Below the pieces are notes generated by a model, which worked only from the letters and a program-made list of their open reading frames with translations, was not told where the DNA came from and made no database searches. Of a stretch of DNA of 64,000 nucleotides, positions 21,777 through 43,515 are shown in pieces. The DNA is from Candidatus Magasanikiibacteriota bacterium (GTDB lineage Bacteria > Patescibacteriota > Patescibacteriia > Magasanikbacterales > 2-02-FULL-50-9b), in contig CAITMK010000004.1 of the NCBI GenBank assembly GCA_903893485.1, positions 431 through 64,430 of the forward strand, read 5' to 3'. The translations under genes were made by a program, and so were the position numbers. Position 1 is the stretch's first letter; each line of letters begins with the position of its first letter.

Positions 21777-21891
21777 TAAAGCAGCCATACATATTTTATC
21801 CACCAGTTTTCCACCATTGACATTATTTATAATCTGTGGAACCCAGTAGATGACCGCGTTGAAGCGGTCCAACAAAGTACCGGAGGTCATC

Positions 21892-22515
21892 GTGTATTAT
21901 TTGGTCGGCACCATTTCGTTCATGAGTGCGTTTGTGTTGGTTTGTGTTTTTAATAGCTGCACTGCTGAGTGCCCCCACTTGGCCACCGATGCGGCGATTA
22001 GCAATGCCGCCGACGCACCAACACCGCCCGATATCACAATTGCAATCGACAATGATGGCGATGGCGTTTTCCCTCCCGAAGACTGCAACGATCACGACCC
22101 AAACGTGTACCCTGGCGCCTATGAGTATTGCGATTTTCAGGACAATGATTGCGACGGCGAGACTGATGAAACGTGGAAGTCACTTTGGGGTGGTTTGTAC
22201 GGAACTCCCTGTTCAGTTACCGACACGAACGGCTGCGTCTCCGTTGGTCGCTGGGGTTGCGACATGGATCATGATTGGCTCGCGTGCAATGCGTCACCTG
22301 TCGTGGCGCATGTTGAAAAATGCAATGGTGCAGATGATGATTGTGACGGCGTCACGGACAACGGCCAGGGATGGCCGATGATCGGTACTGTCTGCACGAT
22401 TATGGCTGGCACATGCACGGTGCCTGGGCTCTGGGCATGCAGCAGCTACACTGAGATGCCCTACTGCACCGCGGAAGATATTCCGTTTCCAGAAACAACC
22501 TGCCTGGAAAACTAA
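21892..22515 (+). CDS. Secreted/lipoprotein-like cysteine-rich protein with MopE-type putative metal-binding repeats.
   Basis: GTG start after GGAGG. N-terminal hydrophobic segment. Repeats CNDHDPNVYPGAYEYCDFQDNDCDGETDE and CNGADDDCDGVTDNG. GC-rich. Confidence 0.55.
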   Translation: MYYLVGTISFMSAFVLVCVFNSCTAECPHLATDAAISNAADAPTPPDITIAIDNDGDGVFPPEDCNDHDPNVYPGAYEYCDFQDNDCDGETDETWKSLWGGLYGTPCSVTDTNGCVSVGRWGCDMDHDWLACNASPVVAHVEKCNGADDDCDGVTDNGQGWPMIGTVCTIMAGTCTVPGLWACSSYTEMPYCTAEDIPFPETTCLEN

Positions 22516-24644: not shown

Positions 24645-24743
24645 CCGTAGCGGAAATTATCGCTCGGTTACTAAACAGGCTACTCAAAAAAAAATCGTTT
24701 GTCAATACTCGACAATTGAGGCCACATGCGCTATCCTAATCAT

Positions 24744-25973
24744 ATGAAAATCGCAATCATTGGTGGCGGCGCCGCAGGCCTCATGGCTGCCGCAACAATT
24801 TTAGAAGAAAACGCCGATGCAGAAGTTTTTTTAATTGAACAAAATACCGGCCTTGGAAAAAAGGTTTTGATTTCTGGTGGCGGCCGTTGTAATGTCACCA
24901 CGGGCATTCGCAACATGAAATTTTTATTCACGCGCTATCCACGCGGCGCAAAATTTTTATCCTCAGCGCTTTACAATTTTCCACCCGAAGCCGTGTACGA
25001 ATGGTTTGAGTCGCATGGCGTGCCATTAAAAATCGAAGAGGATTTACGCGTCTTCCCTATTTCTAACGATGGCCACGATGTGGTTCGTGCGTTTGAAAAA
25101 ATATTTACCAAATCGCGTGCGCACATTTTGCTTTCACATGCGGCAAATAAAATTGAACGTGCTGACGAACAATTTGTAATACATTTTAAAATTGATCCCG
25201 CAATCACCGTGGACAAAATTATTTTAACCACCGGCGGTCAAGCATATCGTCACACTGGCTCAACGGGCGATGGCTACGCTTTCGCGGAATCTCTTGGCCA
25301 TACCATCACGCCGCTCGCTGCCAGCCTGAGTTCATTTATTGCCCGCGACGCATGGGTCAAAAGTTTAGCTGGCGTTTCTTTTGAATACGTCGGGCTTCAC
25401 ACCGATCGTGGCCCGTTACCAACGCCAATCGAAGGTCCAATACTTTTTACACACCATGGCATTACCGGCCCCGCGGTGTTTGCATTTTCGGCGCTCAAAG
25501 CCTTTGAGCTAGCAACTCCAAAACAACCGCTCACCATTTTCTTAAATTTATTTCCTGACAAATCGCCGGAAGCTTTTTTTACACAGCTACAAGTGGCGTG
25601 CCAATGTAATGCCAAGCGATCGATAGAAAATACCATCGCAACCCTGGTTCCAAAATCAGTTGCAAAAATTTTGTGCACGCTTGCCGCAATTGAAAGCGAA
25701 CGGCACGCGGCTGAAATTTCAAAAAAAGAATTGGAGGGCTTGCGCAGCCTCATGCAAAATTTACCAGTGCACACGATTGGCCGCGGCGCGGGCGATGAAT
25801 TTGTAACCGCGGGCGGCATAACTTTGTCTGAGGTAAATCCAAGCACCATGGAATCTAAAATTACCCCTGGACTATTTTTTGCAGGCGAAATTTTAGACAT
25901 TGACGGATTTACCGGCGGGTTCAATCTGCAAGCATCCTGGGCAACAGGGCGTTTGGCGGGAAAAAGTATATAA
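24744..25973 (+). CDS. HI0933/BaiN-family NAD(P)/FAD-dependent oxidoreductase.
   Basis: MKIAIIGGGAAGLMAA Rossmann motif and GGGRCNVT. Confidence 0.8.
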   Translation: MKIAIIGGGAAGLMAAATILEENADAEVFLIEQNTGLGKKVLISGGGRCNVTTGIRNMKFLFTRYPRGAKFLSSALYNFPPEAVYEWFESHGVPLKIEEDLRVFPISNDGHDVVRAFEKIFTKSRAHILLSHAANKIERADEQFVIHFKIDPAITVDKIILTTGGQAYRHTGSTGDGYAFAESLGHTITPLAASLSSFIARDAWVKSLAGVSFEYVGLHTDRGPLPTPIEGPILFTHHGITGPAVFAFSALKAFELATPKQPLTIFLNLFPDKSPEAFFTQLQVACQCNAKRSIENTIATLVPKSVAKILCTLAAIESERHAAEISKKELEGLRSLMQNLPVHTIGRGAGDEFVTAGGITLSEVNPSTMESKITPGLFFAGEILDIDGFTGGFNLQASWATGRLAGKSI

Positions 25974-26169: not shown

Positions 26170-26559
26170 TTATTTCCCTTTGATTAGAGAAAATTTGCCA
26201 CCTCCCGCGAGCACGAGTGCTACACTTGCGAATAAAAAGATCGATGGCGACATAAGCGACTTAAGATCTTTTGGCACTACAAAAATAGCAACTGCCATGG
26301 TAATGGTCAAAAAGATTGAGGCGATGCGAGTTCCAATACCAAGTAATACCGCCAAACCACCTACTATTTCTGCAGCGATTGCCATATAGGTCCAAAATGG
26401 GTTAAAGCCCATGTGTGCAAAACCTGCAACCGTTCCGCTTAAATTAGTGATCTTTTCCCAGCCGGCAAGGAACATAAATACGCCCACACCGATGCGAAGC
26501 ACCAGCAATCCAGCGTCAGTGCTCTTCCATGAACATTTCTTACAAAGTGTATTGAACAT
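26170..26559 (-). CDS. DoxX family membrane protein.
   Basis: 129 aa, 4 TM helices, DoxX-like. Confidence 0.6.
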   Translation of the reverse strand: MFNTLCKKCSWKSTDAGLLVLRIGVGVFMFLAGWEKITNLSGTVAGFAHMGFNPFWTYMAIAAEIVGGLAVLLGIGTRIASIFLTITMAVAIFVVPKDLKSLMSPSIFLFASVALVLAGGGKFSLIKGK

Positions 26560-26630: not shown

Positions 26631-27200
26631 ATGAGTATTCGAACCGCAACCTTCGTCAAAGGCGTCCGTGGCCCTGATGCCATCTTATCTGATGGCCATG
26701 ATCAATACGCCATGATTGGCCGCTCAAATGCAGGCAAATCAAGCCTCATCAATTCCCTAACCAACCAAAAAGGACTTGCCAAAACAAGTTCGTTTCCTGG
26801 CCGCACTCAGGAGCTTAACTTTTTTTTGATCAATAAGAAATTTTATTTAGTTGATTTGCCGGGCTATGGCTATGCAAAACTTGGTCATGAAAAACGCAAT
26901 AAACTGCAAGACCTATTGAACTGGTATTTTTTTGAATCTGGTACCGAAATAAAAAAAGTAATCTTAATTATCGACGCAGAACTTGGCCCAACCGCCAGCG
27001 ACATCGAAATGCTTCATGCGCTTATGTTGGCAGACAAAGATATTATTGTGGTGGCAAATAAAATTGATAAAATCAAAAAACCGTCGCAAGCAAAACAGCT
27101 TGAAAAAATTAAAAGTTTAATTGGTAGTCATCCAATTATTCCGTACTCATCGGAGCGCCGGACCGGGATGAACGAACTTTTAAAAGAGATGCTCGCATAA
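26631..27200 (+). CDS. engB: Ribosome biogenesis GTP-binding protein EngB/YsxC.
   Basis: GRSNAGKSSLINSL G1 motif, DLPGYG, NKIDK. Confidence 0.85.
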   Translation: MSIRTATFVKGVRGPDAILSDGHDQYAMIGRSNAGKSSLINSLTNQKGLAKTSSFPGRTQELNFFLINKKFYLVDLPGYGYAKLGHEKRNKLQDLLNWYFFESGTEIKKVILIIDAELGPTASDIEMLHALMLADKDIIVVANKIDKIKKPSQAKQLEKIKSLIGSHPIIPYSSERRTGMNELLKEMLA

Positions 27201-28317
27201 GAAATGCGCAAGCTCGAACGATCCCCCGAATATTTGCATACAATAATTTTTTGTCATACCACGGAATAAACCGCCAACGACCGCCCACATTAAAAATCCA
27301 TTTTGAGATTTCGATTACTTTAAAATTACGCAGCGACCACATGATGTGGCGTGAAAAAATACAAATGAAGATTCCCGTGGCCGTAGGCCGAAGCAGCTCT
27401 TTTTTTTGTACAAAACAGTTGCGAAGCGCTTCAGAAAAATCCATGCCCGCAAATTCCGCCAATCGAAACCAGGCATTCGCACGTAAATCTGCTTCGACTA
27501 AATAAAATTCTTTGGTTTCTGCGTGCTGCAAATAGGTCATCGATGCAAGACCGTGTATTGTGAGTGCATTTCCCGCTGCCTGAATAATAGATTCAAGCTC
27601 GGGGCACACAAAATATTCTCGTTCAACCGAAACTGCAAACGCACTGCCCGAGGTATGAACGACTTTTGAACACACGTATCCCCGAAGTTCCCCCGCATCA
27701 AATATTGCCTCAACGCCGATCGTCTCTCCTGGAATGTATGCTTGAATTAGTAAATTATTTTTTTGTGTTTCAGAAAGCGACGCGATTTTTTCTTGAGCCT
27801 CAACAGCAGTATTACATAAAAAAACGCCGCGCCCGCCTCCGCTAAAATCAATTTTTAACAAAAGAGGAAATCCGATTTTTTCAAATGTTGCATTCAAATT
27901 AAGATCGTCCGCATATATTACAAATTGCGGCGTCTGAATACCATACGTCTGACACAAAATAGAAAGTCCCGATTTTGAACCAAGCATGATTCTATTGTTC
28001 AAGTTTGTAACAGGCAAAATTTTAGTCGCCAACACCTCGTCTTTAATTTCATTATTCATGATATGTAGCGCTGACTCATCGGTCAAAATTACTCGATCAT
28101 AATCACCTACCGTAACAAGCGCTTCAAGCTGCGACGCAAATTTTTCTGGAGATTCATCATGCGAATCATGCCACACTGCCCAATATTTATTTTTTTTAAG
28201 CCAGGATTTGTTTGAACAATAGACATCGACCACCGCACCAGCGCGATGAAATAAATATGGAATTTCAGATGAAACTTCTGAATTTTTATAATCTACCAAC
28301 AGCACCCAATATTTCAT
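27136..28317 (-). CDS. ATP-grasp domain protein.
   Basis: ATP-grasp core LLLKIDFSGGGRGVFLC...EAIF. The 3' end overlaps engB convergently by about 65 nt. Confidence 0.55.
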   Translation of the reverse strand: MKYWVLLVDYKNSEVSSEIPYLFHRAGAVVDVYCSNKSWLKKNKYWAVWHDSHDESPEKFASQLEALVTVGDYDRVILTDESALHIMNNEIKDEVLATKILPVTNLNNRIMLGSKSGLSILCQTYGIQTPQFVIYADDLNLNATFEKIGFPLLLKIDFSGGGRGVFLCNTAVEAQEKIASLSETQKNNLLIQAYIPGETIGVEAIFDAGELRGYVCSKVVHTSGSAFAVSVEREYFVCPELESIIQAAGNALTIHGLASMTYLQHAETKEFYLVEADLRANAWFRLAEFAGMDFSEALRNCFVQKKELLRPTATGIFICIFSRHIMWSLRNFKVIEISKWIFNVGGRWRFIPWYDKKLLYANIRGIVRACAFLMRASLLKVRSSRSGAPMSTE

Positions 28318-28327
28318 ACAAAACTTT

Positions 28328-29854
28328 TTACACAAAACCTGGGAAAAAATCAGTCTTTATTTTATTTTTATGCACGCCCATTTTTACCAAAATAGTTTCA
28401 AACGCCGTGACCATTCCATGAGGCCCTGAAATGTAAAAAACTCTTTGTTTAAAATCAGGAATTTTTGCCGCGATCATTTCCGCCGTAATCGGCCCAACCT
28501 GCCCTTTCCAATCAGCGGGCACGCTTGCGGTATCAGTAATCGTATAAATAGCTTTCATTCCAAAAACTTTTACGGCCGTATCAAAAATGTCTGCATATGC
28601 AATTTCTGAGACATTTTTATTACTATACAGCAACGTAATGTCTCGTGGATCATCTGAATCGATTAAATATTTGACCATACTACGAAATGGCGTAATACCA
28701 ATTCCACCCGCAATAAATACGCTCTTTTCTTTTTTATCTTTTGGCAGTGTAAAATCACCTGCTAACTGACCGCTTAATATTTGTTCACCTGGCTGCATCG
28801 CCAACATGGTTTGTTTATAACTACTTGCGGGCTCATAAAACTTTACGCCCATAATAATTTCAGATTCTGTTGGCGAAGATGCAATCGTAAAATACCGTCG
28901 ATTGCCTCGATTATCTGGATGATCATGACCCACGGTCCATTCCAGATATTGGCCCGCGCGAAAAGATAATTTAGTATCAGGTGTAAAAATAAAATTATAC
29001 ATGTTCGGACCAATCAAAACTTTTTCTTTAAACGTGAGCAGCAATTTCTTTTTGGGACTTACCGCATACGAAAAAATATTTCCTGCAAGTAACGCTAATT
29101 CTGGTGTAAAGAAAAAGGAGCCCACATGTGCCTGCGGTACAAAAAGTGCACCTACCAATGCGCCGTATGCAATTTGCAATCCACGCGTTGGCGGCGTGGT
29201 GAGCGGCTCGCTGAGCATGACAAATGCAAAGAAAAAAAGTGGCGAACTAAGTAAAAACTTTTGCGTCGCCGGGCCAACGGGAAACCCCGCAAGAAAGTCG
29301 AGAGCAATAAATGTACCGAGTGCCACAATAAAAAAACTAAGCATGAGATCCCACCGTCTCATTTTTCTGATAAGCAAAAAACCACCAATTACAACAAATG
29401 GAAGCAGCGCGGCCGTGCCGACCCACCAGCTTGCAGACTGATTTATCACCAGTGCGGTAACAGCCACCGAAAATGCCACGGGGTTAAAAATATGCTTACG
29501 ATAAATTGCCAAAATATATTTTGATGCCTGCGACAAAACTGCAGCCCAAATAATAAATCCAAAATAAGCGACATCTGGCGTTTTAATCGGTGAAATAATA
29601 AGCGCCAAAATCAATGCCGTTATGTAAACCGATTCAACATTTGTTGGCACCTTAAAAATCCATGATGAAATCGTGTTTGCAAGCCAACACAAAAGTGTAA
29701 TCAGTATGGTTGAATACAAAAGGCTAATCGGCCCAAATGGCATGAGGCCAAACACACTTAAAATAAAAGCGGCGATTAACAACCCAATTACGTAATACAA
29801 AACCAACCGATACATGGTGATCTTATTCAAAAAATTATCGATGGAGGTAAACAT
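28328..29854 (-). CDS. Polytopic membrane protein fused to a C-terminal FAD/NAD(P)-binding ferredoxin-reductase-like domain.
   Basis: About 9 N-terminal TM helices, then RRYFTIASSP (RxYS FAD motif) and GGIGITP (NAD site). Confidence 0.65.
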   Translation of the reverse strand: MFTSIDNFLNKITMYRLVLYYVIGLLIAAFILSVFGLMPFGPISLLYSTILITLLCWLANTISSWIFKVPTNVESVYITALILALIISPIKTPDVAYFGFIIWAAVLSQASKYILAIYRKHIFNPVAFSVAVTALVINQSASWWVGTAALLPFVVIGGFLLIRKMRRWDLMLSFFIVALGTFIALDFLAGFPVGPATQKFLLSSPLFFFAFVMLSEPLTTPPTRGLQIAYGALVGALFVPQAHVGSFFFTPELALLAGNIFSYAVSPKKKLLLTFKEKVLIGPNMYNFIFTPDTKLSFRAGQYLEWTVGHDHPDNRGNRRYFTIASSPTESEIIMGVKFYEPASSYKQTMLAMQPGEQILSGQLAGDFTLPKDKKEKSVFIAGGIGITPFRSMVKYLIDSDDPRDITLLYSNKNVSEIAYADIFDTAVKVFGMKAIYTITDTASVPADWKGQVGPITAEMIAAKIPDFKQRVFYISGPHGMVTAFETILVKMGVHKNKIKTDFFPGFV

Positions 29855-29855
29855 A

Positions 29856-30596
29856 TTAGGTAATCACGTATTTTTGAAAATGAGATGTCTGCGTTGCAAT
29901 TCCTTTTGCATCAATACTATAGCCTTCAAGCCCGGGCATTGCTTCGATAAAATTTATTCCTGCGCGGCCCATGGCAAAAGCGGCTGTTGCAAAACGATCA
30001 GCTTCGTATACATTTGGTCCAACAACCGTAAGACTCACGATATCGGTAATTGGCTGCTCTGGACTCTTGGGGTTGTAAATATGAGACCCGCGTTCATACG
30101 TACCAGACGTTGCGACACCTTCGGTGGTAATTCGCAAAATCTTAATCACTTCTTCTTTTTTAAACGGATTACGAATGCCCACGCGCCACTCGTGCAATTC
30201 ATCGGGCACTCTTGCTTGAATATCGCCGCCCGCATCGATGAAAAAATAATCATGGCCAGCTTGTTTCAAGATGTCACTTGCCTTCCAAATTGCCCACCCT
30301 TTTACCACGCCAGATGGATCACAAAAACCATTTGGCGCGCACATATCAAAATAACCATTACTTTCTTTTTTTGTTTGCGCGGCACATTTAAAAATCTCTT
30401 GCATGTCCGCACTATAGGCATCCGGCGCAATTTCACCCCGATTAATTTTACTTATTTCGCTATCCGATTTATACGTGCTAAATTTTTCATCGATGTAAGT
30501 GAGGTATGCAAAAACGGATTCGCAGCCCCCCTTTTCATCGCCGCCGCGAATATCAACAGTTACATGCATTCCCATGAGATCTTTGGTTTGTTGCAT
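29856..30596 (-). CDS. apbE: FAD:protein FMN transferase (ApbE family).
   Basis: LMGMHVTVDI and DPSGVVKGWA ApbE motifs. Abuts the FMN-binding gene. Confidence 0.75.
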   Translation of the reverse strand: MQQTKDLMGMHVTVDIRGGDEKGGCESVFAYLTYIDEKFSTYKSDSEISKINRGEIAPDAYSADMQEIFKCAAQTKKESNGYFDMCAPNGFCDPSGVVKGWAIWKASDILKQAGHDYFFIDAGGDIQARVPDELHEWRVGIRNPFKKEEVIKILRITTEGVATSGTYERGSHIYNPKSPEQPITDIVSLTVVGPNVYEADRFATAAFAMGRAGINFIEAMPGLEGYSIDAKGIATQTSHFQKYVIT

Positions 30597-30599
30597 AGA

Positions 30600-31253
30600 T
30601 TAGCTCTTTGCCTGCGACAACGCAGCACCGAGCGACTGCTGAAACGCCTGACTCGTATCAGTTGCACCTGACACAATATCGACGTTTGCATTCTGCGCTG
30701 AAATAGCTTCTGAGATCAAATACGGCATTGCATAATTATTGATACTAATCGAATGGTTGCGATCATTTGGATATTGCAAAAAAGCAACGTTCGAAATTTT
30801 CCCCCCAGATATGGTGACGCGAACTTGGACAATGCCATAATACGCATCCGCCTGACTACCCGTATATTGCCCGTCTGTGTACATCCCCTTTGGTTTTGGT
30901 GGCACAATAGGTGCTGGTGGAGGAGGTGGCGCTTTAGCAGGTACCACCGGCTTTGGTGGAGCCGCTACCACGGGTGTTTTAACAACCTTTGGGACTGGTG
31001 CTGAAATTGGTGTTGGGACTACCGGTACTGGAATTGGCGTTGGCGCTGGCGCCGGTTGTGGCGCTTGTACTGGAGCTGGTATTGGGGTCGGCGTTGGTGC
31101 TAGCACTGGCGTTGGCTGCGGCGCAGTGGCAACTACAACAGGAGCGGCCGAATGAACGATTGATACACTAAGATCTTGGCTTAATCCGCCTTGATACGCA
31201 GCATATGCGGCGAAACTTAAAATTATTACGGATGCGTAAATGAATTTCTTCAT
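30600..31253 (-). CDS. Secreted FMN-binding domain protein with a long Pro/Thr/Val-rich linker.
   Basis: Signal peptide, about 80-aa PT-rich linker, C-terminal FMN_bind domain with flavinylation motif VDIVSGATDTS. Confidence 0.7.
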   Translation of the reverse strand: MKKFIYASVIILSFAAYAAYQGGLSQDLSVSIVHSAAPVVVATAPQPTPVLAPTPTPIPAPVQAPQPAPAPTPIPVPVVPTPISAPVPKVVKTPVVAAPPKPVVPAKAPPPPPAPIVPPKPKGMYTDGQYTGSQADAYYGIVQVRVTISGGKISNVAFLQYPNDRNHSISINNYAMPYLISEAISAQNANVDIVSGATDTSQAFQQSLGAALSQAKS

Positions 31254-31258: not shown

Positions 31259-31636
31259 TTAATCATCAAGATCGCCAACTTGGCGTTTCGGAGCCCGAAT
31301 TTTCGTGTTTTTATGTGTAACACCTTTAGGTATACTACGTATTTTTTTTACAATAGGTGCATTTTTTTTAACTACATTTTCATTCTTTTTGATCAAAACA
31401 GGCTGATTTACCGCACCTGTCGCGACAAATGCAATGGGGGCATCTGAAATACCAACTGCCATGGTCCGCACCGGTTTTTGTGAAAAAATATAAGGTCGCA
31501 ACAAAATAAGTACGGCCAAATCTAGGCAGACCAGCAATACTTTTCCAATCTGTGCGGGCGAATACAAATTATTTCGTTTCATATTTCTATTATGCCCGAT
31601 AATCATCATTTTGCAAAATTTTGCATCATTACTCAA
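31259..31636 (-). CDS. Hypothetical basic membrane-anchored protein.
   Basis: 125 aa with one TM helix. Overlaps the upstream MFS gene by 8 nt. Confidence 0.35.
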   Translation of the reverse strand: MSNDAKFCKMMIIGHNRNMKRNNLYSPAQIGKVLLVCLDLAVLILLRPYIFSQKPVRTMAVGISDAPIAFVATGAVNQPVLIKKNENVVKKNAPIVKKIRSIPKGVTHKNTKIRAPKRQVGDLDD

Positions 31637-33149
31637 CGTGCACCTTCACCCCAACTTTTTCTCGATCAACACGAATCCAAAAAGCGCCGATCGCTCCAAC
31701 CAAAACCACGAGTGAGGCGATGAAAAAAACCGTGTCGTAAGCAGAAACCTGCGCTTTTAAAATAATTAATTGCACAAACGTTGCATAATCTGCTGGATGC
31801 GTGCTGTGTAAAACACTATTTTGCCCAATCGCGATAATATTATTTTCTGTGGTGCTATTTAAAATAGTGCCGAAAATTGCAATACCAAATGCACCCGCCA
31901 AATTACGTGCCAGCGCAAGTACCGATGATGCAATACCAATTTCATGCGCATCAACAATTGACGCAATAATATTGGTGCGCTGCGCCATACCAAAACCCAT
32001 GCCAAATGCCATAATGGTTAGTGGTATAGTAATATCAGATGCAGTTGAACCGGGATCAATAAAAACCGAAAACAAATAAATACCAAACGCACAGACAATC
32101 GTACTTGCCGCAATCACATATTGTGGTTTTACTTTGCCCACAAGCGCACCACCGAGTGGCGCCGCAAACATCATCCCTGCTGCCATGGGAATAAATAATA
32201 TGCCACTTTGTGTTGCGTTATATCCCAAAAAAGTTTGTGCAAAAATTGGAATTAAAAACACACTGCCCATGAGTCCCATGAACACGATAAAATTATTTGC
32301 AAGCGTGTTTACAAATGCAGGAATTTTGAAAAACTTTAAATCAACAATCGGCTCTTTTGCCCGTTGCTCAACCTGAATAAAAATCCAAGTAAACAAAATG
32401 GTGATTGCGTAACAGATTATTGAATTCACCGAAATCCAATTCCACTCCATGCCTTTATCAAGCACCAATACCAAAGTACTGAGCGCAATACCCAAGGTAA
32501 CAGAACCCCACCAATCAAAATGATACACTTTATTTTCTTTCACCGATTCTTTTACAAAAGTCATTGCCATGAGCAACCCAATAATACCGATTGGTAAATT
32601 AATTAAAAACACACTGCGCCAACCAAAATTATCAATCAGCGGACCACCGATGAGCGGACCAAAAACCGCGGCAGCTGCAAATGATGCGGACCAAATACCG
32701 AGCGCTTGCGAACGTTCTTTTTCTTCACGAAATGTCATGGCCAAAATTGCCATTGCCGTTGGATAATCGGCGCTGCCCGCAATCGCTTGAATCACACGAA
32801 ATACAATCATGGAACTCAAATTCCACGCAAGACCCGCCAAGATAGAGCCCACAATAAAAATTGAAAAACCTAAAATATAGACTTTTTTCTGCCCCCACAT
32901 GTCGCCGAGCTTGCCCCAAATTGGTACAAAAATTGCATTCGCTAAAATGTATGCCGTTGCGATCCACCCTGCTGCCGAAACTGAAATGCCAAAATTATCA
33001 ATAATTTTTGGCAATGCCAAATTAACAATTGTCTGATCAAGACGCCCTAAAAAAGTACCGATGATGACGGTAAGTAAAATCCACCAACGCAAATTCGATG
33101 GCGCAGATTTTTTTTCTTCTACGGGTTGCACTGCGGCGATCATTTCCAT
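31629..33149 (-). CDS. MFS transporter, DHA2 (EmrB/QacA) 14-TM drug:H+ antiporter family.
   Basis: 506 aa, 14 TM helices, MFS motif A, LPKIIDNFGIS start typical of EmrB. Confidence 0.8.
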   Translation of the reverse strand: MEMIAAVQPVEEKKSAPSNLRWWILLTVIIGTFLGRLDQTIVNLALPKIIDNFGISVSAAGWIATAYILANAIFVPIWGKLGDMWGQKKVYILGFSIFIVGSILAGLAWNLSSMIVFRVIQAIAGSADYPTAMAILAMTFREEKERSQALGIWSASFAAAAVFGPLIGGPLIDNFGWRSVFLINLPIGIIGLLMAMTFVKESVKENKVYHFDWWGSVTLGIALSTLVLVLDKGMEWNWISVNSIICYAITILFTWIFIQVEQRAKEPIVDLKFFKIPAFVNTLANNFIVFMGLMGSVFLIPIFAQTFLGYNATQSGILFIPMAAGMMFAAPLGGALVGKVKPQYVIAASTIVCAFGIYLFSVFIDPGSTASDITIPLTIMAFGMGFGMAQRTNIIASIVDAHEIGIASSVLALARNLAGAFGIAIFGTILNSTTENNIIAIGQNSVLHSTHPADYATFVQLIILKAQVSAYDTVFFIASLVVLVGAIGAFWIRVDREKVGVKVHVE

Positions 33150-33158
33150 ATCGCCAAA

Positions 33159-33791
33159 TTATTTGGTGAAGATGGTCATTTTCGCTGACATGCCATTCTT
33201 TACATTCGGATTTTGCGCCAGATCAAACCGAACTTTAATACTGAATTGCTGGGTTGCTCGTTTATCAGAAATATTAAATGTAAGTCCTGATGCGTTTGCG
33301 ACCGGACTAATTTCGTCAACTAAACCGTGATATTGTGCGCCACCAAATGCGTCGATAGTAAAGGTTACCTGCTGCCCTACTTGAATTCGATCAAGCCCTT
33401 TATTTTCGTCGATCGTTCCTACAATACGAAGTTGCGTCGGATCAATCATCGCAACGACTTGCTCACCTGGATTAATATTTTTGCCAATATTATTTTGCAC
33501 CGCGGTGATTATTCCTTTTACTTTTGTTTTAATAAGACTTGTCCCAACTTGCGCAACAACCGTATTCGCATCAACAGAATCACCTTCTGAAACAAAGGTT
33601 TGTTGCAATGCGCCAGGCGTGGTCGACGACAAACTAATCGTTGGTGCGCTTACCAATGAAGCGTCAATACTCACCTCATTTTGCGACATTTCAAAGTACA
33701 AAAATCCAACCGCGCAGACTAAAACCGCGACAACAATTCCCCCGCTTTGCACCCATTTATTTTGAAGTATGTGTTTTTTATCTAATGACAT
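33159..33791 (-). CDS. HlyD-family periplasmic adaptor (EmrA-like).
   Basis: N-terminal TM anchor followed by biotin-lipoyl-like and beta-barrel segments. Confidence 0.6.
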   Translation of the reverse strand: MSLDKKHILQNKWVQSGGIVVAVLVCAVGFLYFEMSQNEVSIDASLVSAPTISLSSTTPGALQQTFVSEGDSVDANTVVAQVGTSLIKTKVKGIITAVQNNIGKNINPGEQVVAMIDPTQLRIVGTIDENKGLDRIQVGQQVTFTIDAFGGAQYHGLVDEISPVANASGLTFNISDKRATQQFSIKVRFDLAQNPNVKNGMSAKMTIFTK

Positions 33792-33797
33792 ATTTTT

Positions 33798-35342
33798 TTA
33801 TTTACCAAAATAAGCAACTTGATCGCCCTCTGAAACTCCTGAGATAATTTCAACAGAACCAGCAACACTGGTGATTCCGACAGTAACTTTCTGATCCGCA
33901 AACGACCCATCTAAATTACGCTTTAGAACAAACACGTCCGCATCTTTTTTAATTAGTGCCGTTGCGGGTACGGTGAGTACGTTTGTCTTTGTTTGATTGG
34001 TGATAGTTACATTTGCACCCATACCATCTTTAATACGCGCATCCTCGTTCGTAAACCGCAACGTCACTTTGTATGCTGAAGCGCCATTCACTACACTTGC
34101 GCCCGGATCAATGGCAACCACGCTCGCAGGAAATAATTCGCCATTGCCATAGGCATCAAGCGTTACGGATGCCACATCACCAACCGCAACTTTTGCCAAA
34201 TCATTTTCAGAAATAAATAATTGAACTTGATAGTTGCCTGATGAAATGACCGAGATTTGTGGTGCTCCTGGTGAAACGGTTTGTCCAATTTTTGCAACAA
34301 CCGAAGAAACAACACCGTCGATCGGCGAGATGATTGCGGTTTTAGAATACAAACTTTGTGCAAGCGCCAATTGTGCGTGAGCACTCGCAAGGCCTGCGTT
34401 TGCTGCCGCAACGTCTTCGGGGCGCGCCGCTGAAACCTGTAGCGAAAGAGCGGCTTCGGCTTGTGCCAAAGCGCTTTGCGCACTGTTTACCTGGCCTTCG
34501 GCAACTGAAATTTGTGTGTCGCGTGTTTTCAATGCAGATGAATAACTATTTTGATTTGAAATAAATGCTGGCGCATTTGTATTTGGAATCGTTACCGTCC
34601 ACGCGTCCGATGCAGCAGGCACCGCCGCAAACTGAATTGAAAGTCCGGTATCACCGAGTGGTACTGGCGAATTACGAACAGCGCCAAAAAAAACTTTTGG
34701 ACCTGACGCCTGGAATTGCGCACCGGATCCTGTTTCATTAATACTAATTGCGTACGTCGCAGCATCAGTTCCTTCGTATGCGCCGGTAAAAATTGGTTGA
34801 ACCGCGTCAGCGTTTGTCACCGCAGGCACACCCGTAATTGCAGAATTAAACAATGCGGTTTGCGCATTTTGCACCGCGGTATTTTGCGCGGCGCGCACCG
34901 CATCTAAATTAATTTTTGCGTTATCAAGTGCGGTTTGCGCGCTTGCAACAGCTGCTTTTGAAACGTCAATTTGAGCGCCTGTGGCGCCAGATAAAACTTT
35001 TTCATAATTCGCTTGTGCAATCGCGACGCTCGCATTTGCCTGAGCAATTGCCGCTGCCGCATCCAATGCATTGAGCGATGCAAGGAGTTCGCCATGATGC
35101 ACCACTTGACCCACCTGTACCGGTACTGCTGCAACCGTACCATTCGCCTGAAACGAAAGACTGATATTTTGCGCCGCAGTAACCATGCCGCTTGCTGTAA
35201 CTCCTTCTGTGATAGAAGTTCGCGAAACGGACGCGGTGGTATATGCAGGGCGCTGCGCCAACGAATGGCTCACGGCAAAAGTAATCCCTGCAATTACGAC
35301 GATTGACGCGCTAATAAAAATTTGATGTTTGGTTAATGTCAT
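33798..35342 (-). CDS. HlyD-family membrane fusion protein with an extended coiled-coil.
   Basis: 514 aa. TM anchor, Ala/Gln-rich coiled coil, C-terminal beta domain. Confidence 0.6.
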   Translation of the reverse strand: MTLTKHQIFISASIVVIAGITFAVSHSLAQRPAYTTASVSRTSITEGVTASGMVTAAQNISLSFQANGTVAAVPVQVGQVVHHGELLASLNALDAAAAIAQANASVAIAQANYEKVLSGATGAQIDVSKAAVASAQTALDNAKINLDAVRAAQNTAVQNAQTALFNSAITGVPAVTNADAVQPIFTGAYEGTDAATYAISINETGSGAQFQASGPKVFFGAVRNSPVPLGDTGLSIQFAAVPAASDAWTVTIPNTNAPAFISNQNSYSSALKTRDTQISVAEGQVNSAQSALAQAEAALSLQVSAARPEDVAAANAGLASAHAQLALAQSLYSKTAIISPIDGVVSSVVAKIGQTVSPGAPQISVISSGNYQVQLFISENDLAKVAVGDVASVTLDAYGNGELFPASVVAIDPGASVVNGASAYKVTLRFTNEDARIKDGMGANVTITNQTKTNVLTVPATALIKKDADVFVLKRNLDGSFADQKVTVGITSVAGSVEIISGVSEGDQVAYFGK

Positions 35343-35343
35343 A

Positions 35344-35769
35344 TTAATTAATGTGAATCATTTTTTCGAGCAGCTGAAATAGTGTCTCGCGATCTTTTTG
35401 ATTTAAATTATCAAGTAATGCCTCAAGCTTAATACGTCGTGTTAACAAAGCCTTACGAAGAATATCCTTCCCTTTTTTGGTAAGTTGCACCACCACCGAG
35501 CGACGACTGGCAGAATCTTGATCACGCAAAACCAAATCAAGTCGCACTAATCGATCGATCAATACCGTTGCCGAAGGAGCGGCAATCGACAAAAAAGAAC
35601 CCACTTCCTTCATGGTTACTTTTTTTTGCTCACCAATATACCGCAGCGCTTCAAGTTGTGCGATGGTAACCTCCTGCCGCAATGTTTGATCGATTTCACA
35701 TCGTTGCCGCATTTGTCTGCCAATCGCCAAAAATGAAGAGATAATATCGTCGGTTTGTTTTTTCTGCAT
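35344..35769 (-). CDS. MarR family transcriptional regulator.
   Basis: 141 aa with a winged helix. First gene of the marR-adaptor-adaptor-MFS operon. Confidence 0.8.
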   Translation of the reverse strand: MQKKQTDDIISSFLAIGRQMRQRCEIDQTLRQEVTIAQLEALRYIGEQKKVTMKEVGSFLSIAAPSATVLIDRLVRLDLVLRDQDSASRRSVVVQLTKKGKDILRKALLTRRIKLEALLDNLNQKDRETLFQLLEKMIHIN

Positions 35770-36041
35770 ACCGGATTATTAGCCTATCTAACTATTAGGT
35801 TTAAATGATATCAGAATAATGAGTGGCTGTCAATTGCAATTATGGCGCGCCACATGATACGTGTTAGACCCTATTTGACGACTTTATTTGTAGCTGCTAT
35901 GTTAGATATATGAATATCATTCTTACTTCAAGTTGGCATCATATCAACGGGCTTCATTGGCGCGCCGGTTTTTTGCTATAAGTAAGTACCCTCACTTATT
36001 TTCCAAACACCTTCTCGCCGAAGGTGTTTTTTATATCCTCT

Positions 36042-37616: not shown

Positions 37617-38345
37617 ATGAATACCATTTTATGTATTGGCGCTACGCACGGTGATGAACCAATTGGCGTATGCGCACTTCAGATACTTGAAAAGCGAGTC
37701 GATAATTTTGATTGGATTATTGGAAATGAAAAAGCATATGAACAGAATACCCGTTGTTTTGAGGGTGATCTAAATCGAAGCGCCCCGGGCATCTTTGGCG
37801 CACCAAATTATGCATCACGTCGCGCGGCAGAAATAATTGCACTGGCACAAAATTACAAATACACTATTGATTTGCATGGCACTACCGCCGGGACAGGTAT
37901 TTTTACCATTATTAGCAGAGCCACCGATAAAAATATCACGCTCGCTATGCAACTTGGGATTAAAAATATTATCATATGGCCGGCAATCAACGCTTCGCTC
38001 AAAGGACCACTGAGTGAATACACTCCCTGCGGATTAGAAATTGAATGCGGACCAAAAGACTCACTGGAAATTCAAAATGAATTAATCGATATTTTAGAGC
38101 GCTTCATAAAACTGCAAATGCAGCCTGAAATAAATATGCCGGTGGCCAAACCGAACTGCTTTTCCTTTTATGAGGTATACAGCGAACTACGAAAGCCTGA
38201 AATCGCTCCACAGCTTTCAGAATTTTGTGAAATCACCACCGATAATGAAACTTTTTTTCCACTTCTTATCGGACGGTATCAAGATATCACCTGTTACAAA
38301 ATGAAGCGAGTAGAATATGTCTCAATAAAAATACAACGCGATTAA
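37617..38345 (+). CDS. Succinylglutamate desuccinylase/aspartoacylase (AstE/AspA) family zinc hydrolase.
   Basis: ATHGDEPIG, DLNR, IDLHGT motifs. Confidence 0.65.
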   Translation: MNTILCIGATHGDEPIGVCALQILEKRVDNFDWIIGNEKAYEQNTRCFEGDLNRSAPGIFGAPNYASRRAAEIIALAQNYKYTIDLHGTTAGTGIFTIISRATDKNITLAMQLGIKNIIIWPAINASLKGPLSEYTPCGLEIECGPKDSLEIQNELIDILERFIKLQMQPEINMPVAKPNCFSFYEVYSELRKPEIAPQLSEFCEITTDNETFFPLLIGRYQDITCYKMKRVEYVSIKIQRD

Positions 38346-40243
38346 GCTACTGCAGCCTCTTTTTGGGCCTGCCGCATTGCATTTAATTCAAGCATCCGCA
38401 TTTTAAGTGGGTCATCGCTGCTTTGTTTTAGTTTTTTCTTAAATGATGTGGTAAGCGCAGCAATCGCTTCCTCTTTTGTGGTAGCGCCTCGCATACCATC
38501 GACAAATTTATTCATGACATCATGATTCTTTGTAATTTTTTCAACTTCAATTTCAGACAGGTCTGCACCATAACCTCTTTCAGCTACCAATTGTACAAAA
38601 GTATCCTCATCAAGAGTATTCACCGGGTGTTGAAAAAAAATAGCAACAATCTTTTCAATTAGTTTTTTATTTTTTTCTCTCTGTTCATCTTCTTTTTTTA
38701 GCATTTCAGCTTTGATTGCCGCGTATTTGTCGGCAACTGGACCACCGTCGACAACGATTTTATCAATAAGTTTTTGAGCGGCTAATTCTATTGATTCCTC
38801 AGGAAATATTTTTTTCAAACGTTCAACAATTTTTGTTCGTAATTCAATAAGCTCCGGATCTTTCAAAAAGATATCAGATGCCAAATCTTCGACGCCAATC
38901 ATTTTCTTCGCAAATAACTGCAGCTCGGTGTCATCCAACAGTGCAGCATCTTTTATAGTAAATAGTTTTTTTAAAGCATCCGCTGACCCCGCTTGGTGAG
39001 CAACAAATTCCTGTAACCCCTTTCTAAGGCCTTCCAGATACAAAACGTATTCAGGATCTTCACCCACTACACCTTTATTTTCTGTTAACAACCCTGCCAA
39101 GCGAATTCTCTCTTGACCATGCCCCGCACCCACGTCTGTTCTGGCAGAAAATCGATCAGCACTCAGAACTTTTACATCTGGAGCATCGATAATCTTACCA
39201 ATCTGCGATAATCGCCTTCCGAATTCAGGATCTTCGCCGCCGCCAATTTTAGGAACCCCACCAACTAATGCAGCTTCGAATGCTCGGCTCGCCATATTTG
39301 CACCGGAAAAAGAAACCGCTTTTGTCTCTGGCTTTTCAACTTTATCCGATACACCATATAAATATAATTCGAGAACTTTTCTGTAATTATATTGCAACTC
39401 CGAATAGTTTGAAATATTTTCAAACAAATCTCCTTGCTCCGTTTGCTCAAAATCTAATCCACCTGCAATGCCAACAATAGCAGGGTTATCATGAAATACC
39501 TTTATTACATTAAAAACATAATTTTCATCAAGTTTTGTATCCGCGTCAGTCTGCCCAATAATACCATTTGATTTTTTTTGTTCGTAAAAACGAGCCGCTG
39601 CTTCTGCAACACCACGATTTCTCGCACCACCCACATTTGCTTCGCCTGGTGGTAATTCATTTCCTGGTGTAGCTTTATCGATTGCGTAAATTTTTATTCC
39701 CTGCGTTTTAATTTTATCGATAATTTTTCTTTCAGCATCGCTTAAATCTGGAGCGTCACTTCCCCCATTAATAAATTCAATGATACGCAAACAAATTTGA
39801 TTTTCTTCAAGCGCGGTGTGATAGTGCGCCAGCGATCTTTCGTAATCTGCATCACTCATGTTTTGCTTTCTTTGTGGCACACCAGCCGGATTATTAATCA
39901 CAAAAATCGCCTCAAATGATTGAGGTGCGACAGGTGTTTGATTCGCAAGCGACTCGAGTGGACGAAAAATTGCATCTCGCTCCCCGTATGCAGGGATTAC
40001 AATTGAGACTTCACACAATGCGTCCATCGGCGTCTGAATTCGATGTTCACTTGCGGGCAAATTTTCTTGTAGATACCCCTCGATCTTCTGGTTCATCTGG
40101 TCACGTTGTCTATCTACATTTCTATCTACCTGCAGCGCCGCTTGTACACGCACACTATCGACTGGCGCACTTTGATTCAGCACTGGCAGTTCTGCGTCCA
40201 CACGGGCCGCTTCGTTTGTAATTATTTTTGGATCCCCTGTCAT
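38342..40243 (-). CDS. Large hypothetical protein with an internal GT-A fold glycosyltransferase (GT2-like) domain and a C-terminal helical region.
   Basis: N-terminal PVDSVRVQAALQV motif shared with the 700- and 383-aa proteins. SIVIPAYGERD ... QTDADTKLD (DxD) GT-A signature. Confidence 0.6.
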   Translation of the reverse strand: MTGDPKIITNEAARVDAELPVLNQSAPVDSVRVQAALQVDRNVDRQRDQMNQKIEGYLQENLPASEHRIQTPMDALCEVSIVIPAYGERDAIFRPLESLANQTPVAPQSFEAIFVINNPAGVPQRKQNMSDADYERSLAHYHTALEENQICLRIIEFINGGSDAPDLSDAERKIIDKIKTQGIKIYAIDKATPGNELPPGEANVGGARNRGVAEAAARFYEQKKSNGIIGQTDADTKLDENYVFNVIKVFHDNPAIVGIAGGLDFEQTEQGDLFENISNYSELQYNYRKVLELYLYGVSDKVEKPETKAVSFSGANMASRAFEAALVGGVPKIGGGEDPEFGRRLSQIGKIIDAPDVKVLSADRFSARTDVGAGHGQERIRLAGLLTENKGVVGEDPEYVLYLEGLRKGLQEFVAHQAGSADALKKLFTIKDAALLDDTELQLFAKKMIGVEDLASDIFLKDPELIELRTKIVERLKKIFPEESIELAAQKLIDKIVVDGGPVADKYAAIKAEMLKKEDEQREKNKKLIEKIVAIFFQHPVNTLDEDTFVQLVAERGYGADLSEIEVEKITKNHDVMNKFVDGMRGATTKEEAIAALTTSFKKKLKQSSDDPLKMRMLELNAMRQAQKEAAVA

Positions 40244-40246
40244 AAA

Positions 40247-40696
40247 TTATGGATATACCTGAGCCAATATCGAAATCAATTTCACCACCTTATCTTTATC
40301 CGATCCAATAACCACAATATATGATTCTTTTGTGGAGATACTTGCTTTTGTTCTGCCCGATACATCTTGGACTTGCATTTGACCATTATTAAACGTCCAA
40401 CTTGGATCAAATTTTTTACCAGCCGAGATATTTATTACATTCGCGATATCTCCCCAGCCAGTTGCATTAAGCACCGTTTCATTTGCTCTAAAATATTGTT
40501 CTGGCGGCTGAAATTTTCCTCCTTGCTGATTAATGATGCTTACGTTTGTAAATCCTGCATCAACGACAAGCGCCTTCATATCTTCCATTGATTTAGGCAT
40601 TTGATAGGTCGCCGCGTGAACCTGTGTGCGTAGAACAAATAGCGCTATGCCAAAAATAATAAGTGGTAGAGAGCTATATTTTAATAATTTTTGCAT
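40247..40696 (-). CDS. Secreted hypothetical protein (signal peptide).
   Basis: 149 aa. N-terminal MQKLLKYSSLPLIIFGIALFVLRTQVHAATYQ. Confidence 0.45.
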   Translation of the reverse strand: MQKLLKYSSLPLIIFGIALFVLRTQVHAATYQMPKSMEDMKALVVDAGFTNVSIINQQGGKFQPPEQYFRANETVLNATGWGDIANVINISAGKKFDPSWTFNNGQMQVQDVSGRTKASISTKESYIVVIGSDKDKVVKLISILAQVYP

Positions 40697-40749
40697 AAAA
40701 TAATCACTTGTTTGTAGATTAACGCTATTATAGCGTTAATCATGAGCAA

Positions 40750-41550
40750 TCACGCTATAAACTTTTTAGCACTTTTTGCTAATCGCAAGGCGAGCATTTC
40801 ATCGCCATTTAAAATGATTGCGAGGCCAGGATATAATTTCTTAACGACATCAACACCGTCGCGCTGATAAAAAGTTACCAATCTGCCACGATCTTCTCTT
40901 TCTACTGGTATCAGACCTTCTTGAGTAAGACTATCATAATCTAATTCGTTTGCACCCGCAAAATAAAGCTCTCCACTTTTACAAACCCCAAAACCATGCC
41001 CCATAATTGCCATATGCAAGAATGCATCTGACTCTGAAAATGGCACATCATCTTTTAAAACAAACTTTATTGCAGCGTCAGCGTGAATAGATTTCGTGGC
41101 TTCAAGTAAAACCCCCTCACCCCCGACAAACGCAGCGGTCAATTCATTTTTAATCCGTTCAACATCGGCTAAATAACTTTTTGCATCGAGATCATGATCA
41201 CTCACCTCATGACATGCGCGTACAAGCAGCATCCATAACTGCACCTCTGGACGTTCCCCCTCACCAAGATCCTGAGCTCGGCTCCAAATAGCACCAACAT
41301 GCAATTCTTTAGTGAGTGTGTCTACCGCATCCATAGATACACCAGCACTAGAAGCAATTTTTTCAACAATCTGACGAACCTCTTTTACCGCAAGCATGCC
41401 AGCGGGATCAAGACCGCGCACAATACGCCCCTCAAGACCGCGAAGTCCATATGCCCGAAGCTGCTCCCCATGCGCTTCGATTTGTTTTGCCTCTTGTTCT
41501 TGGGTAGAATGATTTTGAACTATTGTTGCCCCCATCATCGATTCTGACAT
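40750..41550 (-). CDS. Hypothetical protein (266 aa), first gene of the 266/149/633 operon.
   Basis: No recognisable domain. SMDAVDTLTKELHV loosely resembles the shared N-terminal motif. Confidence 0.45.
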   Translation of the reverse strand: MSESMMGATIVQNHSTQEQEAKQIEAHGEQLRAYGLRGLEGRIVRGLDPAGMLAVKEVRQIVEKIASSAGVSMDAVDTLTKELHVGAIWSRAQDLGEGERPEVQLWMLLVRACHEVSDHDLDAKSYLADVERIKNELTAAFVGGEGVLLEATKSIHADAAIKFVLKDDVPFSESDAFLHMAIMGHGFGVCKSGELYFAGANELDYDSLTQEGLIPVEREDRGRLVTFYQRDGVDVVKKLYPGLAIILNGDEMLALRLAKSAKKFIA

Positions 41551-41843
41551 AAAATATGCGATTGATTATTTTCATCTATTATAGCAAATCTGACACAGAT
41601 TTTTAGCACAATACCAAAGTTTTTTCAACTTATTCAATAGATCGGCCCCATAGGACCATCAAAAATAATAAGGCCCATAATTGCGTCGCGTAGCGAATGA
41701 CCTTCTTTTGCCTTTATGCCATAGCCTGCGCGCCAATTATATGGGCTTATTTTTTTATCTTCCTGCAATAAAATAAAACAAGTATGCGAATAAACTAGTC
41801 ATAAAAAATGATACTTTTCTTAGTATACACGTATTATCCATAA

Positions 41844-41867
41844 ACAAAAAACAGGGCTCTCGCCCTG
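41844..41867 (-). terminator. Rho-independent terminator downstream of the RT fragment.
   Basis: cagggcgagagccctg hairpin, then U6 on the minus strand. T-run also on the top strand (bidirectional). Confidence 0.65.
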
Positions 41868-41952
41868 ATTTTTGGTGGCACACCGTAGTGGAGGAAGTCA
41901 GGAAAAATTGCGTGAATGAAATGTATACGCACACAGAGGTAAAAATGCTTAA

Positions 41953-43177: not shown

Positions 43178-43341
43178 TTTGAGCCTCTCACTTCTGTGTG
43201 GCCTACCGCTTATCCCGAGTCACCCGACCCAAGACCTACGGCTTACCAACTGCCAACCGATTTGGCTGCAGTAATTAAATTTGCTCTGTTGAGAGAAAAC
43301 CTAGTTATTGCGGCTAAATTAGGTACTGTTATTGACTATCA

Positions 43342-43370
43342 TTTATAGCACGATTTGGTGATTTTGTCAA
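43342..43370 (-). promoter_or_regulatory. Sigma70-like promoter TTGACA-17-TATAAA (minus strand).
   Basis: RC reads ttgaca aaatcaccaaatcgtgc tataaa. It lies in AT-rich DNA between tRNA-Trp and the GC-rich cassette, about 145-nt leader. Confidence 0.5.
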
Positions 43371-43414
43371 GGTGATGGCTCAAAATTTGGCTAATTAGTG
43401 AGTGAAAATCAAAA

Positions 43415-43438: not shown

Positions 43439-43439
43439 G

Positions 43440-43510: not shown

Positions 43511-43515
43511 ATACT

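Follow-up and report, generated by a model that had tools for sequence, protein, structure and literature searches.

A three-gene flavinylation module of a Candidate Phyla Radiation bacterium belongs to the NQR/RNF-like family and encodes an ApbE without leader

The NQR/RNF-like system has been defined as a flavinylation-associated gene cluster with a PF03116-PF00175 fusion, whose gene lies no more than five genes from one for ApbE or for an FMN_bind protein (Méheust et al., eLife 2021, PMC8238504). In that survey 127 clusters were first reported, mainly from Actinobacteria and the Candidate Phyla Radiation (CPR) (PMC8238504). Huang et al. (2024, PMC10979944) presented an AlphaFold-multimer model of the complex from Ktedonobacter racemifer. 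In their model the NqrB/RnfD-like subunit is without its flavinylation site, and the flavin mononucleotide (FMN) of the NqrC/RnfG-like subunit docks at the flavin site that is now non-covalent. Unlike in NQR or RNF, the NqrC-like subunit touches the NqrB-like subunit directly. Here we describe a three-gene module at positions 28328-31253 of a 64,000-nucleotide stretch of contig CAITMK010000004.1 (Candidatus Magasanikiibacteriota bacterium, assembly GCA_903893485.1); this whole stretch is called the window below. The isoleucyl-tRNA synthetase encoded in the window has relatives in Magasanikbacteria and other Patescibacteria (73-85% identity), which places the host in the CPR. The module is a member of the NQR/RNF-like system, whose architecture was already published in 2021 and 2024.

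All three genes are on the minus strand and nearly contiguous. The first encodes an FMN_bind protein of 217 aa (30600-31253; PF04205, E = 6e-8, residues 138-212). It is followed by a gene for a 246-aa ApbE-family FAD:protein FMN transferase (FAD, flavin adenine dinucleotide; 29856-30596; PF02424, E = 6e-39), and then by a gene for a 508-aa fusion of a membrane domain with a domain like ferredoxin-NADP reductase (FNR) (28328-29854; PF00175, E = 1e-14, with a marginal PF03116 match). The spacer between the FMN_bind and ApbE genes is 3 nt and that between the ApbE and fusion genes 1 nt. The initial annotation had recognized these adjoining open reading frames (ORFs). Its ApbE-family assignment and its description of the third product as a polytopic membrane protein fused to an FNR-like domain both hold, and the motifs it quoted are present: VDIVSGATDTS at residues 191-201 of the FMN_bind protein, and RRYFTIASSP (residues 319-328) and GGIGITP (residues 383-389) in the fusion. 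The view that the three genes constitute a single functional flavinylation module is supported.

As in the published definition, PF03116 (N-terminal) and PF00175 (C-terminal) occur in one protein, and the ApbE and FMN_bind genes are directly adjacent to the gene for this fusion. As described by Huang et al., the flavinylation Thr of NqrB/RnfD is not conserved. We find no essential difference between the NQR/RNF-like system and the module: they share the fusion, the adjacent apbE and FMN_bind genes and a CPR host, and for both a one-way flow from NAD(P)H to an extracytosolic flavin is proposed. To the existing description we add a leaderless, shortened ApbE, a family much larger than 127 clusters, and an FMN_bind subunit of the small SaFMN3/PplA-like type. 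The initial annotation was right about the logic of the locus and wrong about the system it named, extracellular electron transfer (EET) of the Listeria type; the module is typical of the NQR/RNF-like family.

The assignment depends first on the N-terminal membrane domain of the fusion (residues 1-268; 29051-29854). Pfam scored it as PF03116 (NQR2_RnfD_RnfE) with 28.0 bits against a cutoff of 27.7, over residues 152-262. When a profile built from the first 275 residues in 42 loci was compared with all PDB sequences, only RnfD of A. vinelandii (E = 1e-5) and NqrB of V. cholerae (E = 0.007-0.02) were found. The AlphaFold2 model of the full fusion had a pLDDT of 87 and a pTM of 0.73. Because the Foldseek list for this full-length model was dominated by FNR domains, residues 1-275 were modelled separately (pLDDT 86, pTM 0.83, ten helices). 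The top 15 PDB matches of the isolated domain were all RnfD, from three organisms, or NqrB (E = 7e-6 to 5e-3, TMq 0.56-0.69), with urea transporters next at E > 0.3. The profile and fold searches agree with each other and thus back the marginal Pfam score. The comparison with NqrB/RnfD that the initial annotation had recommended is therefore positive by both methods, and the membrane domain is a genuine RnfD/NqrB homologue.

The covalent flavin site of RnfD/NqrB has nevertheless been lost. NqrB residues 206-271, which include the flavinylated Thr236, are reduced to about 18 residues in the fusion. Alignment with NqrB places the outer-face loop NQSASWWVG (residues 138-147; 29414-29443) where NqrB and RnfD have the flavinylated loop. 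Position 142, the equivalent of Thr236, varies among S, T, D and N across the family, and the motif [ST]GA[ST] is absent from the entire fusion sequence. It is the shortened loop, the variable position and the missing motif together that indicate the loss. There are only two His in the membrane domain and one Cys in the whole fusion, so that wiring through haem or Fe-S centres is unlikely and flavins are the expected cofactors. In the structural model, the K/R-rich loops 119-121 and 163-167 are on one side together with the C-terminal FNR domain, and loop 138-147 is on the opposite side. Helix count and charge distribution point to an N-in/C-in topology, in which the FNR domain would be cytosolic and loop 138-147 would face outward.

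The C-terminal FAD/NAD(P)H-binding domain of the fusion (residues 270-508; 28331-29047) has NCBIfam matches that span residues 282-504 and comprise FNR-type reductases such as Fre, flavohaemoprotein and NqrF. By fold, the full-length model matched the NqrF FAD domain, Fre, b5 reductase and flavohaemoglobin in Foldseek (E = 1e-13 to 1e-16), and bacterial NOX was among the matches by way of its FNR domain. The domain is predicted to hold FAD and to oxidize NAD(P)H, the substrate being that of the family. In having a transmembrane conduit with a C-terminal cytosolic FNR-like NAD(P)H domain, the fusion is similar to the MsrQ-like and PepSY-like PF00175 fusions and to NOX and ferric reductases, which in bacteria are often found with apbE and FMN_bind genes. 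However, the conduits of those proteins are di-haem helical bundles, whereas that of the module has the RnfD/NqrB fold with its two His and presumably carries flavins.

The likeness to Rnf (RnfC-RnfD-RnfG) and Na+-NQR (NqrF-NqrB-NqrC) extends over the RnfD/NqrB fold (TMq up to 0.69), the NqrF-like FAD/NADH domain and, as predicted for the module, an ApbE-flavinylated FMN_bind subunit. With a membrane domain homologous to RnfD/NqrB and an FNR domain homologous to NqrF, the module might be what is left of a complete Rnf or Na+-NQR pump, or an accessory to one, with the remaining subunits (RnfA/E/B/C or NqrA/D/E) encoded elsewhere in the genome. We consider such an origin very unlikely, because the flavinylated loop that defines NqrB/RnfD is deleted, the three-gene unit recurs alone in many phyla with no Rnf or Nqr subunit nearby, and the direct contact of NqrC-like with NqrB-like subunit in the Huang model (PMC10979944) has no counterpart in NQR or RNF. 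Neither RnfA/RnfE or NqrD/NqrE nor RnfB/C or NqrA/F subunits were found by Pfam scans of the window, which covered nearly all ORFs of at least 120 aa, or among the recurrent neighbours of the 80 related loci described below. The module has two subunits and those complexes have six; it lacks RnfA/E or NqrD/E, Fe-S centres, and RnfB/RnfC or NqrA, and in it the NAD(P)H domain and the RnfD-like domain are parts of one protein. Its electron path is presumed to be one-way and not looped.

The FMN_bind subunit begins with MKK and, by hydropathy, a hydrophobic helix of about 19 residues (residues 1-23 in all; 31185-31253). A low-complexity tether rich in Pro, Val and Ala follows (approximately residues 37-122; 30888-31145). 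Homologues have the same layout of a basic N-terminus with hydrophobic helix, a low-complexity linker and an FMN_bind domain of about 95 residues, and their linkers are highly variable in length (19-190 aa). The initial annotation reported an 80-aa PT-rich linker; a linker does exist, with 86 aa and 40% Pro, but it contains many Val and Ala and only 7 Thr and is not strictly PT-rich. No tandem DNA repeat was detected in it. The helix pattern MKKxxLSxxVIxxFxxY is shared by homologues from CPR, Chloroflexota and Alphaproteobacteria. Because the helix sequence is conserved across phyla, it suggests a retained membrane anchor that packs against a partner and not a cleaved signal peptide; by the positive-inside rule it would be a signal-anchor with N-in/C-out orientation. 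The subunit is therefore probably not "secreted" as initially described, its helix fitting a retained anchor like those of NqrC and RnfG.

The flavinylation consensus Dxx[ST]GA[ST] appears in the FMN_bind domain as DIVSGAT at residues 192-198, and the predicted site of FMN phosphoester attachment is Thr198 (codon 30660-30662). In nearly all homologues (D/N)x(V/I)SGA(T/S) stands about 19 residues from the C-terminus, and about 70 of them conserve the Dxx[ST]GA[ST] motif. The closest solved relative of the domain is SaFMN3-D2 (8p2a; E = 1.7e-13), whose flavinylated Thr aligns with Thr198. This Thr carries covalent FMN in crystal structure 8P2A, and the reduced SaFMN3 protein is re-oxidized by O2 (PMC10339131). 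Covalent FMN is thus predicted on Thr198. With SaFMN3 and CbFMN4 (PDB 8P2A, 8P2B; PMC10339131) the protein shares a small FMN_bind domain, the Thr motif, an N-terminal membrane anchor and flexible linkers; it differs from them in having one FMN_bind domain where they have three or four, and in being coupled genetically to a dedicated membrane reductase. NqrC and RnfG chains in the PDB gave no sequence match to the domain at E ≤ 10, and the kinship to NqrC/RnfG is therefore at the level of the Pfam family only.

The family is large and highly conserved. Homologues of the fusion form at least 8000 clusters at 90% identity, the best being 55-70% identical over the full length. An exhaustive search with the membrane domain gave 375 clusters (at 50% identity) with E ≤ 1e-30 and 804 with E ≤ 1e-10, most of them about 490-515 aa long and hence fusions. 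Identity within the family is 50-70% across phyla. We compared 80 related loci from named genomes of several phyla. They cover Patescibacteria labelled Doudna-, Sacchari-, Uhr-, Levyi-, Ames-, Kaiser-, Peregrini- and Gracilibacteria, together with Ktedonobacteraceae, metagenome-assembled genomes (MAGs) labelled Acidobacteriota, and Alphaproteobacteria such as Mesorhizobium; the nearest relatives of the module are in MAGs of Patescibacteria/Doudnabacteria. An FMN_bind gene lies upstream of the fusion gene in 72 of the 80 loci and an ApbE gene is present in 63. The exact order FMN_bind, ApbE, fusion is seen in 55 loci, where neighbouring genes are usually 4 nt apart (the median spacing) or overlap by 4 nt (ATGA), and this tight spacing suggests translational coupling. 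Chance could not account for a grouping this frequent. The order recurs in CPR, Chloroflexota, Alphaproteobacteria, and MAGs of Acidobacteriota and Verrucomicrobiota-like type. The same cluster was reached again when three distant mini-ApbE proteins were taken as the start point.

No further gene was consistently linked to the module among the 80 loci. The recurrent neighbours were a response regulator (33 loci, mostly of Alphaproteobacteria) and VIT1-like genes (6 loci). Several variants of the arrangement were observed. In about a dozen loci (L003, L004, L008, L025, L026, L029 and others, the closest Doudnabacteria relatives included) the FMN_bind gene is directly upstream of the fusion gene and the flanks examined contain no ApbE gene. 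ApbE precedes FMN_bind in L012, L022 and L052. In L085 (4550-7996) two FMN_bind genes flank ApbE, preceded by a gene for a 2036-aa protein without Pfam match. An ECF sigma factor gene adjoins the module in L083 (7300-7878) and L084 (2033-3667), the latter also with MsrA and MsrB, which hints that some lineages use the module in connection with envelope or oxidative stress.

We think it probable that the module encodes a two-subunit, flavin-only transmembrane electron-transfer complex and its maturation enzyme, and that it conducts electrons from NAD(P)H to the cell exterior. The cytosolic FNR-like domain with its FAD would oxidize NAD(P)H, and the electrons would then traverse the membrane by way of one or more non-covalent flavins in the RnfD/NqrB-like ten-helix domain. 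At the outer face they would reach the FMN covalently bound at Thr198 of the FMN_bind subunit, which would be anchored by its N-terminal helix and tethered by the 86-residue Pro-rich linker. This linker could swing the flavin domain between a distal acceptor and a docking site that takes the place of the missing NqrB flavinylation loop. ApbE would supply the covalent flavin by transferring FMN from FAD. NQR and RNF lead their electrons along a loop; here the flow would be outward only. A CPR cell with such a complex could re-oxidize NAD(P)H on an external acceptor, for which O2, Fe(III) and other soluble or surface oxidants are candidates.

In favour of this proposal, the FMN_bind domain is close to an experimentally flavinylated domain and reduced SaFMN3 reacts with O2. 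The VIT1-like genes that adjoin the module in 6 loci, as they do in the Méheust survey (PMC8238504), were also counted for it. Several points weigh on the other side. The PF03116 score is marginal. The topology of the FMN_bind subunit and the fate of its putative signal peptide are deduced solely from hydropathy and charge, and the flavin content of the membrane domain is presumed by analogy with RnfD/NqrB and the Huang model. No acceptor-related gene is linked to the module within the window. Méheust et al. (2021) and Huang et al. (2024) report no experiments on the NQR/RNF-like system, and a full-text search of the available literature for later work gave only those two papers and reviews. 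Finally, the lack of a leader on ApbE, here and in about 60 loci, conflicts with the extracytosolic flavinylation that the proposal assumes.

The 246-aa ApbE ORF has neither a signal peptide nor a hydrophobic segment, and a TAA stop lies one codon upstream of its start; the public annotation starts it at Met10 (237 aa). Aligned with E. coli ApbE, the protein retains the motifs TSGTY, SHIYNP (with the His) and EADxxAT but has no counterpart of the lipoprotein leader or of some 45 internal residues (E. coli 105-150). The same start residue is found in about 60 related loci, without usable upstream extension, and every one of the best 120 ApbE homologues is 234-281 aa long. Judged by sequence, the protein is a member of a conserved short (about 245 aa), leaderless subfamily that occurs across CPR, Chloroflexota, Alphaproteobacteria and others, and FMN transfer activity is predicted from its PF02424 domain with conserved flavin- and metal-site motifs. 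A hidden upstream start or leader was considered and rejected: the stop-to-stop extensions are short, or Arg-rich and out of frame. Readthrough of the stop codon joining FMN_bind to ApbE was likewise rejected. The two genes are in frame here (TAA plus one codon), but only 13 of 55 loci share this frame, fewer than chance would give, and each of the three stop codons occurs at the junction across the 55 loci. Such a fusion would have carried ApbE outside.

ApbEs are for the most part lipoproteins that the cell secretes, and those known to be without a leader modify proteins of the cytosol, for example Klebsiella fumarate reductase (PMC12052999). With no export signal on ApbE, flavinylation at the outer face is unexplained. 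The site of ApbE action in the NQR/RNF-like system is not discussed in Méheust et al. (2021) or Huang et al. (2024). The pipeline of Méheust et al. discarded clusters in which none of the target genes had a predicted signal peptide (PMC8238504), and this filter may explain the low count of 127. In our module, as judged by hydropathy only, the FMN_bind protein has the MKK and hydrophobic N-terminus and ApbE has nothing of the kind. Flavinylation may take place in the cytoplasm and be followed by translocation; since FAD is available there, no FAD exporter would be needed. Alternatively, the leaderless ApbE may have some other role. One could go further and suppose that the complex matures differently from canonical extracytosolic flavoproteins, being flavinylated in the cytoplasm and exported with the flavin on, and that it provides the main NAD(P)H re-oxidation of a respiration-less CPR cell on an external or host-surface acceptor. 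Such a complex might also couple to ion translocation through the retained NqrB/RnfD-type channel. We give this extended version a low probability.

The leaderless ApbE also bears on the orientation of the FMN_bind subunit. If this subunit were cytosolic, ApbE could flavinylate it there, and it would pass the electrons of the FNR FAD to a flavin or quinone site on the cytosolic side; the complex would then be a reductase of quinone or another membrane acceptor with NAD(P)H, and nothing would be exported. The absence of a leader or hydrophobic segment from ApbE across phyla, the cytosolic targets of known leaderless ApbEs (PMC12052999), and the absence from the fusion of an Fe-S or other relay between FAD and membrane all speak for this arrangement. 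It is opposed by the MKK and helix of the FMN_bind protein, which predict N-in/C-out by the positive-inside rule, and by the variable Pro-rich linkers of 19-190 aa, typical of envelope-spanning tethers. To our knowledge, CPR bacteria are also generally without quinone biosynthesis, which counts against it. Moreover, the Huang model docks the flavinylation site at the position of the covalent FMN of NqrB, and the subunit is drawn as extracytosolic (PMC10979944). On balance we regard a cytosolic FMN_bind subunit as distinctly improbable.

The analogy with flavin-based EET on which the initial annotation was built stands in part. A logic of cytosolic NAD(P)H oxidation, a membrane conduit and an outer protein flavinylated by ApbE is supported for the module, and it is the logic that Méheust et al. 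and Huang et al. propose for this architecture. The locus is not of the Listeria type, however, since the window shows no EetA/EetB/DmkA-like genes, the FMN_bind protein is no lipoprotein and the conduit is of the RnfD/NqrB type. In Listeria monocytogenes (FmnB, PplA, Ndh2, EetA/B, DmkA/B), an ApbE-type transferase flavinylates an extracytosolic FMN_bind carrier that brings cytosolic reducing power to outside acceptors, as proposed for the module. In contrast to the Listeria pathway, the membrane step of the module would be quinone-independent, its FMN_bind protein is not a lipoprotein, and no Ndh2 with a transmembrane helix is linked to the cluster. Its ApbE is leaderless, whereas Listeria FmnB acts extracytosolically (PMC9973259).

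An ApbE-like enzyme, an FMN_bind protein and an NDH-2 are indeed all encoded in the window, and one may therefore ask whether electrons run from Ndh2 through demethylmenaquinone and EetA/EetB to a PplA, with FmnB as the flavin transferase. The NDH-2 gene (6778-8022) pointed out in the initial annotation is real (Pyr_redox_2, E = 4.5e-45; NDH2_C, 29.1 bits), but it is not part of the module, being 20 kb away and unlinked in every related locus. Its neighbours are genes for an amino-acid permease and for YidC. No 19-residue stretch of the NDH-2 exceeds a hydropathy of 1.34, so that it has no transmembrane helix, the helix that was the key EET marker in the Méheust survey (PMC8238504). The FMN_bind protein contains no Cys and consequently has no lipobox, so that it cannot be a PplA-like lipoprotein. 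The dmkA and eetAB homologues that the initial annotation proposed to look for did not turn up in the Pfam scans of the window ORFs, nor did DmkB, and the conduit that adjoins ApbE and FMN_bind is the RnfD-FNR fusion instead. A Listeria-type pathway is thus the least probable of the alternatives considered here and, in our opinion, hardly tenable. The same scans showed housekeeping, envelope and transporter genes, and no respiratory complex besides NDH-2 and no quinone or flavin biosynthesis genes were seen among them.

The VIT1-like neighbours can also be taken to indicate that the module is an assimilatory ferric reductase, which would reduce Fe(III) outside the cell so that it can be taken up. 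In 6 of our loci a VIT1/CCC1-like gene adjoins the module, and likewise in 6 clusters of the Méheust survey, in which the analogous MsrQ-like and PepSY-like PF00175 fusions are linked to iron reduction (PMC8238504). The window encodes divalent-metal uptake genes at 9059-10622 and 14587-15891, namely an ABC-3 permease with its ATPase and an Nramp transporter. These genes, relevant only if the module is a metal reductase, are 13-20 kb off and unlinked to it. In most loci, those of all close CPR relatives among them, the module has no iron gene in its vicinity, and others have MsrA/MsrB or ECF sigma factors instead. A role confined to iron assimilation is therefore unlikely, and we favor the more general export of electrons from NAD(P)H.

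CPR bacteria (Patescibacteria) are regarded as fermenters that mostly have no electron-transport chain and often live as episymbionts. The module offers a concrete, testable candidate for the way in which they get rid of reducing equivalents. Three genes suffice for it, its soluble or expressible parts are identifiable and the predicted flavinylation site can be named. An ApbE without leader is specifically inconsistent with the present model of extracytosolic flavinylation, and it is the sole feature of the module that is at odds with the published model.

The genes that flank the module in the window were considered as possible parts of it and rejected. The ORF at 31259-31636 and the genes for ATP-grasp, major facilitator superfamily (MFS), HlyD, DoxX and NDH-2 proteins are not co-conserved with it, with the exception of MFS/HlyD in L005. 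The ATP-grasp/RimK-like gene (27136-28335, minus strand) shares 8 nt with the fusion gene at the latter's 3' end and is possibly co-transcribed with it; this neighbourhood is not conserved elsewhere. The ORF at 31259-31636 (minus strand; 125 aa, 107 aa in the public annotation) ends 5 nt ahead of the FMN_bind start. Its product has a single hydrophobic segment and a Lys-rich tail, no Pfam match and no homologue in any related locus. Immediately upstream of the module and in the same direction are genes for MarR, two HlyD-type membrane-fusion proteins and an MFS transporter (31629-35769, minus strand). In L005, a Saccharibacteria-labelled MAG, the same MFS (74% identity) and HlyD (60% identity) genes lie upstream of the module (2186-4438), which suggests block-level synteny or transfer. 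A promoter and terminator scan gave counts no higher than the shuffled expectation, and its sole strong promoter-like site was upstream of the MarR gene, at about 35805-35833.

Two redox-type genes lie less than 4 kb from the module, for an HI0933-like flavoprotein (24726-25973, plus strand) and a DoxX-family membrane protein (26170-26559, minus strand). Farther away, near tRNA-Trp (43439-43510), a reverse-transcriptase ORF of 240 aa (41953-43177, minus strand; RVT_1, E = 1e-15) overlaps an upstream 215-aa ORF without Pfam match, and more unannotated ORFs are found at 40247-41550. It could be a retroelement, either a group II intron, a retron or a diversity-generating retroelement (DGR); no DGR-type template/variable repeat pair of at least 40 nt was found in 38000-44500. 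Large ORFs of 700, 383 and 714 aa at 2163-5435 and 57824-59968 have no Pfam match at E ≤ 1e-4. A 221-aa protein encoded at 21850-22515 (plus strand) carries a MopE-type putative copper/metal-binding motif (PF11617, E = 2e-13).

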